In this document: positions 1 to 4,348 of the stretch, one piece after another
Numbering within the stretch: the first letter of the stretch is position 1
Layout of the letters: each line of letters begins with the position of its first letter
Made by a program: the position numbers and the translations under genes
IMG/VR virus record: IMGVR_UViG_3300045988_127337
Location: 1 to 31,589 of that record
DNA length: 31,589 nucleotides
DNA from: a virus
Lineage: Duplodnaviria > Heunggongvirae > Uroviricota > Caudoviricetes
Strand: one strand, 5' to 3'
The notes under the pieces: generated by a model
What the model was told of the DNA's origin: nothing
The model's input: the letters and a program-made list of their open reading frames with translations, nothing else
The model's database searches: none

Positions 1-180
1 GGCTGGGACGGAAGTCGCTGTCGTTCTCAAAATCGGTGGAGCTGCATGACAAAGTCATCGGGCATTATCTGAACATAAAACACTATCAATAAGTTGGAGT
101 CATTACCCTGCACCGCGCTGAATTCTGGTAAAAAGAATCCCTCACCATCCGGCGATTATTGAGTAAATTACGTTTCCATA

Positions 181-200
181 AATGCCCCCGCAGGGGCATT
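181..200 (-). terminator. Putative intrinsic terminator hairpin downstream of the 214..1038 gene
   Basis: Palindrome aatgcccc-cgca-ggggcatt lies 14 bp past the minus-strand stop codon at 214..216. The following U-run is weak. Confidence 0.35.
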
Positions 201-213
201 TGCAGTAATGAAA

Positions 214-1038
214 TCAGGCGGTGAAAGTACCAATAAAGGTTTCTACTTTGCTGTCCTTGAATTTCTCAACAAGCAGATCACGAAATTCGTTAGCCATTTC
301 TTCCTGCACCGCCTCCAGCTGAATAATGCGTAGAACCAGTACAGGACGATCGCCAGTGATAATACTGAGGCGTAATTTAAACGGACGTTCTTTCAGACCT
401 TCAAACGGAACGCATTTAAATTCAAATGCCACTGGCATAATGTCTTTGGTCTTCGCTTCGACAGACTCCATCAGGGAGCGTTTGCCGCTGAAGTCATTAT
501 CTTCAAAATCAGCGGTCTGGTTTGCTTCAATCGTGATTTTACGGACAGCCGCAGCCGCTTTTGTTGCCTGAATAGCGTCACCATTAGCATCAAAGCCCAC
601 AAGATAGTCGGCCCAGTCTTCAATCCATTCTGCCAGTGACTTCTGGGAGTTACGCTCGCCGTTAACAGACAACAGAGCAGAGAACGGTGCTGTCTTTTTC
701 AGTTTGAGTGTGGCGGTGTTATCTGCGTGACCTGGTTCATCAATAGTACCCAGGTTAAGCACACTGACGGCACGCATATTATCAGCATCGATAAAGCAGC
801 GGGTGCCTTCATCTGCAAGATCTTTAGAATAACGGGTAAAGTCATCGATGCTGGCAGTGGAAAGCGCACCACGGAAACGGAAGCGATTTAAATTAAATTT
901 TTCCAGATCATGAATGCGGAAATTCTCAGGCAATGCCACAGCATCGGCACCAATCTTACTGATAATTTCATTAACACCCTGAGCAGAAATAAGGGCATGG
1001 ATTTGATTAATTGCGGTTGCGTCTAAGTTCTGAGACAT
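214..1038 (-). CDS. YfdQ-like (DUF2303-type) prophage protein, 274 aa
   Basis: Intact ORF starting [12 protein letters not shown] with a GAGGA Shine-Dalgarno 7 nt upstream. Size and N-terminus recalled as matching the CPS-53/KpLE1 YfdQ family; not verified by search. Confidence 0.75.
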
Positions 1039-1103
1039 AATAAGTCCTCACTATATAAAGATATTCAGTGATGAGATAAATAATCAGTTAATTAAAAACG
1101 ATA

Positions 1104-1466
1104 TTAACGACCTGCTGCGCGGAGTTTTCCGTCAGGTTCACCGGCAAGAGTCAGTAACTGTCCCTGGTCTTCCTGCAGAATAGTCAGGCGACCACCGCGA
1201 TTGACATACATCGGCGTTTCGGTGGTGTCTTCTTCGGAAATTTTCCCGCGGTTAGTCGGGCGAACATATGAGAGTTTGTGTTTGATTTTCACTCGGTTCT
1301 CATCAAACGGTTCGATTTCCAGGTTGAGCGAGACCTTACCTTTGGTTTTCGTGTTCATCACACCGGAAGCGACTTCACTGAGAACTGCGCCGATTTTGGT
1401 TTCAAATACGCCGCCGTCCAGCTCCCCGATAAATGCCTGCACATCAGTACTGCGTTCGCTAGCCAT
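1104..1466 (-). CDS. Hypothetical prophage protein, 120 aa (YfdP-like)
   Basis: ATG at 1466 is preceded by GAGGAG (revcomp of 1472..1477). The long upstream in-frame extension to 1784 is GC-rich and not protein-like. Sits directly upstream of the YfdQ-like gene on the same strand. Confidence 0.65.
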   Translation of the reverse strand: MASERSTDVQAFIGELDGGVFETKIGAVLSEVASGVMNTKTKGKVSLNLEIEPFDENRVKIKHKLSYVRPTNRGKISEEDTTETPMYVNRGGRLTILQEDQGQLLTLAGEPDGKLRAAGR

Positions 1467-1934
1467 TTTGCTGCTCCTCATCATATCGACCCTGCAAGGT
1501 CGGTTAGTTTCTCCACAAAACAGAGAAGAACACCTGCGGTGACTGCCGCCCGGATGGATTGGGTTATGAGCCCGTCGTCCGGTGATGCTCTTCTCTGTTT
1601 TGTAAAAAGGACGGTACCAGCCGGAAGCAAGGGTACAAGCTGGTACCGCCAAGACTACACACAGCATAAAGTTGTGGTGCCGGGTGCCTCCCGGTGCCTG
1701 GCGAAGGTTGCACACCAGGCGGGTGGGTATCCACAGAAGGTCGACTGTCAGCCTCAACCTTAACCCGCGTGCGCTGAGCCGCATTCACCACAACGCTAAG
1801 GATTCTCTCTGGTTGAAAATACTTAGCTGTTATGTGCCTGCTTTTAGCCACATCAGGCGAGGTGGACCTAGTTATTCCCCAACAACAAGGATTCGGTTAA
1901 TCTGGTTATCCCCAACAACGCAAAAGGAAAAGAA
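1467..1934. other. GC-rich structured non-coding block (candidate ncRNA or regulatory DNA)
   Basis: No protein-like ORF. Perfect 15-bp inverted repeat arms at 1515..1529 and 1589..1603; 9-bp inverted repeat GGTACCAGC/GCTGGTACC at 1613..1621 and 1639..1647; direct repeats GTTAT(T)CCCCAACAAC at 1871..1886 and 1905..1919. Confidence 0.4.
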
Positions 1935-2369
1935 ATGTCCGGTAATATCTATACGCTGTACAAATCCCACTGTGAAAATGTTGGAAAGTATCGGGGCATT
2001 GAAATCAGTGGGGTAGTGTCATCAGTCGAAATAAGCAAAGTTGAATCAAGGGCAACATTACTTACTCTTTTGGACCTTGTCTTACATGAGCACCGGAAGA
2101 AATTCGGCACTCCCTATAATCAGTTGAATGGGAAAAAGGCTCTGGTTCACCTTATTCTGATGAAGCATCACTGGATGCCAAAACAGATTAATGAGATGAA
2201 ATTTGATGAACTTCTTCTTTCAATTCAGGATGAACTCACACTTGATAAAATAAGCGTAACCGCCCAGAAATTTTTAGATTATCGAGACTGGAGATCACAA
2301 ATTCATCACTTTGATGATTTTGACGAAAATGAATGGGATCCTAATTTGTCTGCACAATATCTAAAGTAA
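1935..2369 (+). CDS. Hypothetical protein, 144 aa; AT-rich orphan (moron-like) gene
   Basis: ATG at 1935 with AAGGA Shine-Dalgarno 6 nt upstream. AT-rich by eye compared with neighbours. Oriented opposite to the early-left operon. No recognisable motif. Confidence 0.6.
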   Translation: MSGNIYTLYKSHCENVGKYRGIEISGVVSSVEISKVESRATLLTLLDLVLHEHRKKFGTPYNQLNGKKALVHLILMKHHWMPKQINEMKFDELLLSIQDELTLDKISVTAQKFLDYRDWRSQIHHFDDFDENEWDPNLSAQYLK

Positions 2370-2547
2370 CATCCTGTGATAAAACCGTGATTTCCTGATC
2401 CAGTTTTTTTAAGGAGTCTATTGTTTCCTGTCGATAAGACAGCACTTCACGAAGCTGGTTTATAGCTGCCAGCTTCTTTGTCATCCACTCATAAATTTCC
2501 TCATCTGTGTAGCCAGGCGCGACGATTTTGGGTTCTGTTTTGTGCAT
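2341..2547 (-). CDS. Hypothetical small protein, 68 aa, first gene after the PL-like promoter
   Basis: ATG at 2547 with GAGGAG 8 nt upstream; the listed ORF start at 2562 is a TTG. Its 3' end overlaps the 1935..2369 gene convergently by 29 bp. C-terminal half looks coiled-coil. Confidence 0.55.
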   Translation of the reverse strand: MHKTEPKIVAPGYTDEEIYEWMTKKLAAINQLREVLSYRQETIDSLKKLDQEITVLSQDVTLDIVQTN

Positions 2548-2591
2548 TTCACATCTCCTCAAGTTATCAGTTACTTGTTGATGGGGACCAG

Positions 2592-2624
2592 ATTGTTAAA
2601 GAGCTAAGCGTCCTGTAGGGCGCT
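2592..2624 (-). promoter_or_regulatory. Nut-like antitermination element: hairpin followed by rrn-type boxA
   Basis: Minus-strand RNA reads hairpin (2624..2607) then GCUCUUUAACAAU (2604..2592), a 13-nt match to the E. coli rrn boxA consensus as recalled. Lies in the leader between the PL-like promoter and the 68-aa gene. Confidence 0.5.
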
Positions 2625-2630
2625 TTTTTG
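2607..2630 (+). terminator. Intrinsic terminator (plus strand)
   Basis: Stem agcgtcc / gggcgct with loop tgta, followed by a T6 run at 2624..2629. Confidence 0.6.
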
Positions 2631-2714
2631 TTGCTAACGAATCATCCTGGACTTCATATGCCCCAGGCGGCTACTTCGTGGGCGTCCTGCCTGTTTGTTG
2701 TTTCTCTTGGGTAC

Positions 2715-2742
2715 ATTATGTATCTCATAGGTACATTGTCAA
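2715..2742 (-). promoter_or_regulatory. PL-like early-left promoter with embedded operator
   Basis: Minus strand -35 TTGACA (2742..2737), 16-bp spacer, -10 CATAAT (2720..2715). Spacer contains palindrome ATGTAC-N7-aTACAT (2718..2736), matching the OR operator architecture. Confidence 0.6.
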
Positions 2743-2746
2743 GTAT

Positions 2747-2767
2747 AAAAAAACCTGCCGAAGCAGG
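2747..2767 (-). terminator. Intrinsic terminator downstream of the repressor gene
   Basis: Minus-strand hairpin cctgc-ttcg-gcagg followed by a U7 run, 15 bp past the repressor stop codon. Confidence 0.7.
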
Positions 2768-2781
2768 TTCATAAACATTGA

Positions 2782-3456
2782 TTAGGCTTTGATTTTGTAT
2801 CTTCTTGGTTTTCCTGAGAAAATCACAGTTCCAATTATAGAGCAATTACCGTTGATCTTAATGTAAGGCTCAGGCCAGTTTGGGTTTAACGCTTTGAGAT
2901 AACGCTGTGTCCCATCTTCTATCAACCTTTTGAAGGTGGTTTCACCTGTATCGTGCATCAATGCAATAACGTCGTCACCGTGGCAGGCAGGTACTTCAGG
3001 ATCGACAAAAATCATGTCTCCCGGGCGGTACTCGTCAATCATTGAATCACCTATCACCCGCAAGATATAAGTCATTTCCCCACAGGGTACAGGGCAGGGA
3101 TACGTTTCTGCTGTGCTCAAATCAACCTCAGAATATCCAACTTCTTTCCATGCTCCGGCCTGTACCCATGATATGACAGGGACTAATGTGATTTGTTTAT
3201 TAGTGATTGAAACATCAGGTTTTTTTGTGATGTTCGTTGTCTGGTGTTCTTGATCGAGCCATCCGACAGGCAGGTCGAAACATTTTTCGATGTGTCGTGC
3301 CATGCTGTCACCGATATTTTTAGTAGCACCATCTCCCATAAACCTGCTGGTCTGGGTTGGCTCGCGATCAATCATAGTGGCAAAGGAAGAATTCCCGCCA
3401 ACACCATCTCTCAGTTTTCTGGCGTTAGACCGCCGGATGTCATGGATTGTTTTCAT
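2782..3456 (-). CDS. CI-type prophage repressor, N-terminal HTH plus C-terminal S24 (LexA-like) peptidase domain
   Basis: 224 aa. C-terminal region aligns by eye with P22 C2 (LNPNWPEPYIKINGNCSIIGTVI vs LNPQYPMIEINGNCKIIGVVV). Contains GDSM catalytic serine motif and an Ala-Gly cleavage site (VQAGAW). No Shine-Dalgarno, consistent with a leaderless PRM-type transcript. Confidence 0.85.
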   Translation of the reverse strand: MKTIHDIRRSNARKLRDGVGGNSSFATMIDREPTQTSRFMGDGATKNIGDSMARHIEKCFDLPVGWLDQEHQTTNITKKPDVSITNKQITLVPVISWVQAGAWKEVGYSEVDLSTAETYPCPVPCGEMTYILRVIGDSMIDEYRPGDMIFVDPEVPACHGDDVIALMHDTGETTFKRLIEDGTQRYLKALNPNWPEPYIKINGNCSIIGTVIFSGKPRRYKIKA

Positions 3457-3546
3457 AACGAAATTAAAACCCTTGTACCGTTAAGGTACAAGTATCTTGA
3501 AGGTTCATTTCAATCATGTAATATGTACACCGGAGGTACATATTGT
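3457..3546. promoter_or_regulatory. Divergent immunity-region promoter and operator segment (OR, PR, PRM)
   Basis: Palindromes CTTGTACCGTTAAGGTACAAG (3472..3492) and ATGTACACCGGAGGTACAT (3523..3541), both with a GTAC-N7-GTAC core. Plus-strand PR: -35 TTGAAG (3497..3502), 16-bp spacer, -10 TAATAT (3519..3524). Confidence 0.65.
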
Positions 3547-3747
3547 ATGAAAGCGTATTGGGACTCTTTAACCAAAGAACAGCAGGGCGAGTTGGCCGGA
3601 AAAGTTGGCTCAACACCTGGCTACTTACGGCTGGTTTTCAATGGCTATAAAAAAGCCAGTTTTGTGCTGGCTAAAAAACTTGAGCAATGCACGTCAGGTG
3701 CAATTACGAAATCTGACTTAAGACCGGATATCTATCCGAAAGATTAG
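3547..3747 (+). CDS. Cro-like HTH regulator, 66 aa
   Basis: ATG at 3547 with GGAGG upstream; divergent from the repressor. The YdaS-family assignment is from recalled sequence character only. An alternative ATG at 3523 lies inside the operator. Confidence 0.6.
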   Translation: MKAYWDSLTKEQQGELAGKVGSTPGYLRLVFNGYKKASFVLAKKLEQCTSGAITKSDLRPDIYPKD

Positions 3748-3778
3748 CAGAACACTTTCAATTTTTAACCACAGAACG

Positions 3779-4348
3779 ATGAGGCTAATCGTGGGTAAGC
3801 ATCACTGGAAAATAGAAAAACAGCCTGAGTGGTACGTGAAAGCTGTCAGAAAAACTATCGCGGCGTTGCCGGGTGGTTACGCTGAAGCGGCTGACTGGCT
3901 CGATGTAACAGAAAACGCTTTATTCAACCGCCTTCGTGCAGATGGCGATCAGATTTTCCCGCTGGGATGGGCAATGGTTTTACAGCGTGCTGGTGGCACT
4001 CACTTCATTGCTGATGCTGTGGCGCAGTCTGCAAATGGCGTCTTTGTGTCTCTTCCTGACGTCGAGGATGTGGACAACGCCGATATTAACCAGCGTCTGC
4101 TGGAAGTCATTGAACAGATCGGCAGTTATTCAAAACAGATTCGTTCAGCAATCGAAGACGGTGTAGTGGAACCGCATGAGAAGACAGCAATTAACGACGA
4201 GCTGTATCTCTCAATTTCGAAGCTGCAGGAGCATGCAGCACTTGTCTACAAAATTTTTTGCATTTCAGAAAGTAATGACGCCCGCGAGTGTGCAGCTCCG
4301 GGCGTCGTGGCGTCGATTGCTTCTGGTTGTGGAGAAACTAACGCATGA
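3779..4348 (+). CDS. CII-like or YdaT-like early regulatory protein, 189 aa
   Basis: Position immediately after cro in the early-right operon. Family assignment from memory only. The start could instead be the GTG at 3791, which has a GAGG upstream. Confidence 0.5.

Follow-up and report, generated by a model that had tools for sequence, protein, structure and literature searches.

Exclusion genes are known from the immunity region of temperate phages, as with lambda rexAB, which is co-transcribed with cI, and P22 sieB, which is read in the direction of the early-left promoter PL. BstA is cited as a further precedent for an exclusion gene expressed in the lysogen in the report on the Tha/Ith system (PMC11087260). 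In that system, from prophages of Staphylococcus aureus, a defence protein (Tha) is accompanied by a small overlapping antisense gene whose product (Ith) inhibits Tha on induction, so that lysogeny and lysis each see expression of one of them to the exclusion of the other (PMC11087260). In the e14 prophage of Escherichia coli, ymfI-ymfJ is listed as a convergent excludon from RNA-seq data, with ymfJ induced late in the SOS response and YmfJ protein detected (PMC11002266, PMC12288877). Here we describe two convergent genes, A and B, of 144 and 68 amino acids (aa), in IMG/VR record IMGVR_UViG_3300045988_127337, a Caudoviricetes sequence of 31,589 nucleotides (nt) whose whole length we refer to as the window. 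The open reading frame (ORF) list bore out the original prediction of these two genes and of their 29-bp tail-to-tail overlap, and A has its own Shine-Dalgarno sequence on the plus strand, against the leftward early operon.

1935-2369, plus strand: gene A, 144 aa, ATG start, opposing the PL operon
1924-1928, plus strand: Shine-Dalgarno of A, AAGGA, 6 nt before the ATG
2341-2547, minus strand: gene B, 68 aa, first ATG at 2547, first ORF after PL and boxA
2555-2560, minus strand: Shine-Dalgarno of B, GAGGAG, 7 nt before the ATG
2341-2369, both strands: overlap of the A and B coding sequences, tail to tail, 29 bp
2404-2410: T7 run within B, seen in the sequence; A7 in the B frame, codons K47-K48

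Judged by gene content and position across related loci, A-B is a recurrent, mobile, mutually antisense two-gene module in which both genes have relatives, and the pair found here is one allele among the mobile prophage cassettes that fill a hypervariable slot flanked by PL and the early-left genes. Our preferred reading, to which we assign a probability of about 45%, is that A would be a lysogen-phase accessory or exclusion effector, with B and antisense transcription from PL acting as its lytic-phase off-switch. The conserved pair, the named families and the conserved non-coding cassette ends go beyond the original prediction. To our knowledge, the pairing, the proteins and the cassette ends are novel, while the general arrangement, in which a prophage moron has an antisense partner (an excludon or noncontiguous operon), is already known.

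The A and B proteins and their recurrent pairing

The two genes had been described as orphans without recognisable motifs, a description that did not survive profile searches. A is a full-length member of the family modelled by NCBIfam NF033230 ('ECs1072 family phage-associated protein'), with residues 4-144 aligned to positions 2-142 of 142 at 157.8 bits (E 1.7e-46; curated cut-off 70), and it matches PHROG 5286 over residues 1-144 of 144 (1.5e-90). An exhaustive profile search found 86 clusters of A-family proteins at 50% identity; full-length members almost always stand alone as proteins about 145-155 aa long, and the family shares the motifs H53-R54, L64-x-G66-x-x-A69-L-x-H72, W80 and E133-W134-x-P. 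The family name is a label for a hypothetical protein only: the single paper found to mention ECs1072 does so as a row in a microarray table, with no function, structure or partner described, and ECs1072 itself was looked for in the Sakai genome and not located. The structure model of A is confident and all-helical, and predicts a soluble helical protein. A HEPN-like motif (Rx4-6H around G66-H72) was considered and rejected, as its basic residue is variable (K/R/I/S) and no HEPN structure matched.

B matches PHROG 1744 (6e-35) and is a relative of YdfC: tblastn (E 2e-9) aligns residues 1-66, or 97% of its length, at 39-41% identity with genes whose annotation reads ydfC or 'YdfC family', the RefSeq label in E. 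coli being 'ydfC: protein YdfC'. A hidden Markov model built from B homologues scores YdfC genes at 1.6e-20, and neither Pfam nor NCBIfam holds a curated model for YdfC. B also shares the family's place as a promoter-proximal gene of a repressor-controlled early-left operon, with ydfC lying one or two genes after dicA/cI in the two ydfC loci compared (L186 and L187). In the Qin prophage, ydfC is the third gene of the dicBF early operon and of uncharacterised function (PMC5069750). The protein begins with the motif EPKIVAPGYTDEEIYEWMxKKL and continues as a single long helix (residues 15-67), hydrophilic over its 68 aa; AlphaFold2, given an alignment of near-identical sequences only, models one long amphipathic helix at a mean confidence (pLDDT) of 87. 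A longer reading of B from a TTG start (2341..2562, minus strand) would give 73 aa.

Both genes were intact in all 160 of the 160 copies fetched. Polymorphism counts over 64 haplotypes (158 ungapped copies, drawn from IMG/VR and from other loci) gave 25 synonymous and 3 non-synonymous changes for A and 10 and 13, respectively, for B; together with the distant homologues of both, these counts indicate that A and B are real coding genes. Genomic context was obtained for 12 representative A-cluster proteins, to which single-protein scans of IMG/VR added one further locus, and a scan of genome contigs gave identical copies only. We found that a B homologue converges on the 3' end of A, and overlaps it, in nine sampled lineages, with A identity to the window falling to about 20%. 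The overlap is 29 bp in the window and 32-95 bp in the eight other lineages:

L004 (E. albertii): A 72% identical, overlap 64 bp, B tail frameshifted
L093: A 58% identical, overlap 50 bp, beside a cI/Cro pair
L094/L095: A 51% identical, overlap 47 bp
L097: A 37% identical, overlap 95 bp
L190: A 34% identical, overlap 32 bp
L191: A about 28% identical, overlap 95 bp
L102: A about 25% identical, overlap 80 bp
L104/L105: A about 20% identical, overlap 62 bp, in a P2-like early operon between Cox and gpA

The backbones of these loci are several lambdoid ones and the P2-like early operon. The identities of A and B drop together, from about 58/50% to about 20/20%, and this parallel divergence suggests that the two proteins interact. 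The B homologues retain the N-terminal motif EPxI(I/V)AxGY(S/T)D(E)E(I/L)YxWMxKK, and longer B variants end in a C-terminal DP(I/T/L) that, read directly from the codons, is the antisense reading of the invariant EWDP of A, so that the overlap couples two conserved motifs. At another locus (L192), a convergent overlapping ORF encodes an 88-aa coiled-coil protein that the B profile does not recognise.

The main rival explanation is that the two genes are chance neighbours, B being an ordinary YdfC-type gene of the early-left backbone and A a solitary moron that landed opposite it, with the overlap reflecting tight packing. Several observations favour this explanation and at the same time weigh against the partnership that we propose. 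A was found without B in six sampled contexts: alone in the same cassette frame (L003), in a non-phage chromosomal context (L098), between the Q antiterminator and holin genes, opposing the operon (L100/101, L188 from Salmonella phage ST64B and L189 from a Klebsiella phage), and in L103. YdfC-type genes without A are present in Qin-type prophages, and ydfC occurs in 57% (3083 of 5426) of complete E. coli genomes. The two genes are thus not obligate partners. In addition, the E. albertii locus has a mosaic joint within B at about 2397, leaving B residues 1-48 98% identical beside an A that is 72% identical, and the solo A of ST64B still converges on and overlaps an upstream operon gene, sb50, that is not B-like. 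Yet chance would have to account for a pairing and geometry repeated in nine lineages with proteins diverging in parallel, one of these recurrences being in the P2-like early operon, a backbone in which we know of no YdfC-type gene. Moreover, the B68 allele of E. coli occurs essentially only with A, the B-specific segment being present in 424 of the 5426 complete genomes and A in 422. We consider chance neighbours an unlikely explanation on this balance.

The A-family ORFs in ST64B (L188, 2312-2779, plus strand) and in Klebsiella phage KPP5665-2 (L189, 2282-2791, plus strand) are unannotated, full-length matches to the family profile (E about 1e-42). Both lie between the Q/antiterminator region and the holin gene, opposing the late operon, and the ST64B ORF overlaps the 3' end of sb50, which is annotated on the opposite strand. 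An A homologue of this Q-holin type gave no DNA match in E. coli.

Variant C-termini of B were considered as possible mosaic alleles, which was rejected because they proved to be frameshifts and ends of the insertion sequence IS1. One extra base in the T7 run yields an 80-aa B with a different tail that reaches further into antisense A, and examples of this 8-T run or shifted tail are the E. albertii locus and protein variants P0047, P0052, P0058 and P0060; the T7/T8 variation may stem from sequencing errors, from decay or from slippage at the run. B variants ending in translated IS1 termini (GDAANLLI or GNDSNLLIVFYVQ...) are among P0050, P0061, P0063, P0002 and P0046, and the A variant P0002 and B variant P0046 share an identical foreign tail, translated from an insert at the A/B overlap. 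Given these IS1 ends and the foreign tail among database variants, the AT-rich cassette appears to be a recurrent insertion target.

The cassette slot and its conserved ends

The window represents a lambdoid prophage of the SfIV/SfV/e14 type, with positions 108-4000 98.7% identical to Shigella phage SfIV. The cassette lies between a promoter that we read as CI-controlled PL and the early-left genes, beside the following features of the immunity region:

2782-3456, minus strand: CI-type repressor with S24 peptidase domain (Pfam PF00717, 1.5e-26), annotated cI in SfIV
2751-2770, minus strand: terminator-like hairpin after cI; a putative terminator is annotated at the equivalent position of SfV
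2715-2742, minus strand: PL-like promoter, TTGACA, 16 nt, CATAAT, an 11/12 match to the consensus

An operator-like palindrome (ATGTA-N9-TACAT, 2718-2736) overlaps this promoter, and palindromes of the same form are present at 3472-3492 and 3520-3544, between cI and cro. The near-consensus promoter and an overlapping palindrome shaped like those of the cI-cro interval lead us to read 2742..2715 as the repressor-controlled PL. Downstream on the PL strand, the order is a hairpin (2625..2606), boxA (2604..2593), the GAGGAG Shine-Dalgarno and then B. In agreement with the AT-richness noted by eye in the original prediction, the G+C content is 0.38 for A and 0.41 for B, compared to 0.48 over the window's first 12 kb, and a sliding profile drops to 0.36-0.39 over 1951-2550.

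The original prediction had also placed the genes at a moron site adjoining the repressor, which agrees with the S24 repressor gene at 2782-3456 and with what fills the same slot elsewhere. Related prophages match the window almost exactly as far as 1865 or 1919/1928 and then from 2588/2591 or 2633 onwards, and between these conserved flanks they carry unrelated genes:

e14: ymfI (plus strand) and ymfJ (minus strand), overlapping tail to tail by 63 bp
SfV: orf33 (minus strand)
PhiR29_1, SJ7, 3CM and strain 774: single, differing plus-strand genes
One further strain: a 63-aa plus-strand gene and a minus-strand ClpX-zinc-finger gene

Nearly two thousand E. coli genomes (1955 of 5426) match part of the query 1800-2780, with the whole A-B cassette in 406 of them, and the A-B module is joined to at least five different immunity-side sequences. 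As ymfI/ymfJ of e14 show the same geometry without homology, the slot seems to favour antisense pairs generally.

This exchange of contents also bears on the possibility that the genes serve developmental control, with B an early regulator, like lambda cIII or other, and A a lysogeny-phase regulator of the lysis-lysogeny switch. B is the first gene after PL and boxA, it is predicted to be a small amphipathic helix, and YdfC-type genes lead the early operon of Qin dicBF (PMC5069750), all of which would suit a regulator. However, otherwise near-identical phages hold unrelated genes, or single genes without B, in the slot, and such free replacement argues that neither gene is needed by the backbone; A is also found between Q and holin in other phages. 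Antiterminators of the lambda N type carry an arginine-rich RNA-binding motif at the N-terminus, whereas that of B, MHKTEPKIVAPGYTDEEIYEW, is acidic and has no arginine cluster. We therefore regard a developmental role for the pair as improbable.

The non-coding ends of the cassette are conserved along with, and beyond, the genes between them:

1836-1934, plus strand: conserved leader upstream of A, about 100 nt, with tandem units TATTCCCCAACAACAAGGATT and TTATCCCCAACAACGCAAAAGGA
1899-1919: left arm of an inverted repeat, from a repeat search
2575-2594: right arm of the inverted repeat, from a repeat search
2593-2604, minus strand (PL transcript): boxA, exact rrn-type, GCTCTTTAACAA, the sole exact copy in the window
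2606-2631, plus strand: G+C-rich hairpin (8 pairs, 5 of them G-C) followed by T6, intrinsic-terminator-like

The second leader unit, TTATCCCCAACAACGCAAAAGGA, carries the Shine-Dalgarno of A. The leader is nearly unchanged even where the A protein encoded after it shares only 25-58% identity (L093, L095 and L102), and it also precedes unrelated plus-strand genes in the slot (L005, L007, L009 and L010). The right end, composed of GTTGATGGGGA-CCAGATT, the boxA complement, the hairpin and T6, likewise accompanies both the diverged A genes (25-58%) and unrelated plus-strand genes. At one of these loci (L102, 2900-4400), two cassettes stand in tandem: the leader motif recurs after the first hairpin and boxA, and the second cassette contains a plus-strand gene of 137 aa and a small minus-strand neighbour of 58 aa, followed by the CI gene.

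The arms of the inverted repeat form a duplex of -25.2 kcal/mol in the window, compared to -11.1 +/- 2.9 kcal/mol for shuffled arms, and across cassettes the native pairs range from -15.5 to -27.7 kcal/mol, 2.5-6 standard deviations better than shuffled arms in seven of eight. The repeat flanks the cassettes of the slot regardless of the genes that they contain, and matching arms are found in L093, L095, L102, L005 and L003. In L009/L010, both arms are replaced by a different yet complementary pair, GTAACCCTC and GAGGGTTAC, which argues for selection on complementarity. In predicted full-length folds of both strands, 1899-1919 pairs with 2577-2594 at a probability of 0.8-1.0 over a span of about 650 nt, and the window helix is predicted to extend over both translation-initiation regions (1925-1938 with 2544-2559). 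Some cassettes lack this predicted extension, and pairing between the two ends is frequent in shuffled controls as well; we therefore do not claim sequestration of ribosome-binding sites as a conserved feature; the core inverted repeat alone is established.

The sequence GCTCTTTAACAA, which we take to be the rrn/P22-type boxA consensus, is kept with small changes in L093, L095, L102, L003, L005 and L009, and the hairpin is conserved with the cassette in other loci. On the plus strand, the hairpin and T6 lie beyond the start of B, where they would terminate an A transcript that has already passed through the whole of B. On the minus strand, the hairpin is immediately 5' of boxA, the same order as in rrn leaders. 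Together, boxA and the hairpin may form a boxA-based antitermination site for the early-left operon. No N-like protein was seen after boxA, and these phages appear to be without an N gene. A boxA-like sequence with two mismatches, ACTCTTTAACCA, is present at 3563-3574 (plus strand, the PR direction) within the start of cro; with four matches in the window at up to two mismatches, which is not above chance, it is probably a coincidence.

Two further non-coding stretches flank the cassette. Just downstream of the PL start, about 65 nt (2638-2702) are 87-97% conserved in phages of other genera that otherwise share nothing with the query, among them Citrobacter phiNP, Pantoea AH07, Klebsiella Kp4866-6 and Salmonella ST64B, making this stretch a candidate cis-acting element of the PL leader; folding of the PL leader showed no excess stability over shuffled sequences (z = -0.15). 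On the other side, a G+C-rich stretch of about 470 nt with no convincing ORF, between a yfdP-like gene (1104-1466) and the cassette, contains a near-threshold Rfam match to the prophage small RNA family STnc100 (RF02076) at 1601-1824 on the minus strand, covering the full model length (43.4 bits against a gathering score of 47; E 4e-07). In the GenBank record of SfIV, long ORFs (SfIV_34 and SfIV_35) are annotated across this stretch, and B is left unannotated.

A predicted switch between lysogeny and induction

According to our preferred reading, CI would close PL in the lysogen and leave B silent, and A would be made from its own leader on a transcript that passes through the whole of B in antisense before reaching the hairpin-T6 at 2606-2631. 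Upon induction, PL would fire and B would be the first protein made, with the PL transcript crossing all of A in antisense en route to the early-left genes. Either transcriptional interference or duplex RNA would then shut A off, and binding of the B protein would probably contribute as well. Such opposed transcription would make the two states mutually exclusive, and A would most likely be a lysogen-phase effector (superinfection exclusion or another accessory function) that is harmful to the lytic growth of its own phage. With respect to an excludon, the coding sequences overlap, the nearest strong terminator-like site on the plus strand is beyond the start of B, and transcription from PL should have to read through A. 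That each transcript is antisense to the other thus fits the geometry and the predicted signals. By analogy with other genes beside phage repressors, we infer an exclusion or lysogenic-conversion function for A.

To the counter-evidence already given, further points must be added. A scan of the leader for a consensus sigma-70 promoter found none, so that lysogenic expression of A is assumed. A has no Pfam domain match, and PADLOC-DB v2 gave no family for A or B at E values up to 10. The structure prediction suggested for the two proteins along with the original prediction did yield models (A all-helical, B one long helix), but a search with the model of A matched no structural relatives, and a defence role is argued from position and analogy. 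Finally, B is less constrained than A by the polymorphism counts, and frameshifted or IS-disrupted copies of B coexist with apparently intact A.

A further rival is toxin-antitoxin or addiction behaviour, which the original prediction had raised for the pair and in which A would be the toxin and B the antitoxin, or the 3' overlap would act in a type I-like manner. Type I systems with 3' overlaps exist on prophages, and A-B is a small, AT-rich, mobile two-gene unit with an antisense overlap; the predicted long-range 5'-3' pairing over the ribosome-binding regions of the window transcripts is also reminiscent of the fold-back inhibition of hok. That sequestration is not predicted in all cassettes, however, and B, lying behind the CI-repressed PL, should not be expressed in the lysogen, the very state in which an antitoxin has to act. 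The genes converge instead of forming an autoregulated operon as in type II systems, and as to type I, neither protein is a small hydrophobic peptide and both partners are conserved coding genes. Neither resembles a known toxin or antitoxin, with no such family matched in Pfam, NCBIfam or PADLOC, and frameshifted B is tolerated beside intact A. Taken together, these points make an addiction module very improbable and lend no support to this part of the original prediction.

A bolder version of the preferred reading, which we regard as rather doubtful, is that A and B constitute an unrecognised prophage immunity system with self-immunity, in which A, with a new helical fold, would abort or exclude superinfecting phages and B would bind and neutralise A on induction. 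Stand-alone YdfC proteins, encoded in over half of E. coli genomes, would then be orphan inhibitors that let phages of the Qin type and their relatives escape exclusion of the A type, and the cassette ends would be a general system by which lambdoid phages exchange antisense morons.

The exact pair is present in about 8% of complete E. coli genomes and the slot in 36%. The pair offers a first partner and a testable role for ECs1072-type proteins and for YdfC, the product of a K-12 gene. The cassette ends (leader, covarying inverted repeat and boxA-hairpin) would provide a sequence handle for finding lysogen-phase morons systematically.

Comparison with known systems

Like lambda rexAB, P22 sieB/esc and BstA/aba, which provide exclusion in the lysogen while sparing lytic growth of their own phage, A-B lies beside the repressor and the early-left operon. 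A differs from rexAB and sieB in being antisense to PL, and none of the three systems has sequence or domain similarity to A or B. By family, A is a full-length ECs1072-type protein scoring above the curated cut-off. B resembles YdfC of Qin dicBF along its full length (about 40% identical), in size, N-terminal motif and early-left place, whereas Qin-type ydfC is without an A-family partner.

The nearest counterpart by position is ymfI/ymfJ of e14 in E. coli K-12 (L006, 1609-2196), which shares the slot, the flanks and the repressor type, and which has a plus-strand gene running against PL and a minus-strand gene behind PL with a 63-bp tail-to-tail overlap. Homology to A and B was considered and rejected (hhalign probability 0.2-0.3% for ymfI against A and ymfJ against B), and in e14 the replaced stretch also takes in the part of the leader that lies past 1865 and, at the other end, the hairpin and boxA as far as 2633.

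The nearest counterpart by proposed logic is Tha/Ith, likewise a prophage accessory gene beside the repressor, overlapped from the opposite strand by a small gene. Tha is a HEPN protein, whereas A has neither HEPN nor another known domain; Tha is transcribed from the cI operon, whereas A is separated from cI by the terminator and PL; and ith has a constitutive promoter of its own, whereas B would be driven by a repressor-controlled lytic promoter. The hosts here are Gram-negative, and the proteins are unrelated. If a Tha/Ith-like logic holds for A-B, antisense modules of an effector and its off-switch would be a general answer to prophage autoimmunity in phages of Gram-negative and Gram-positive bacteria.

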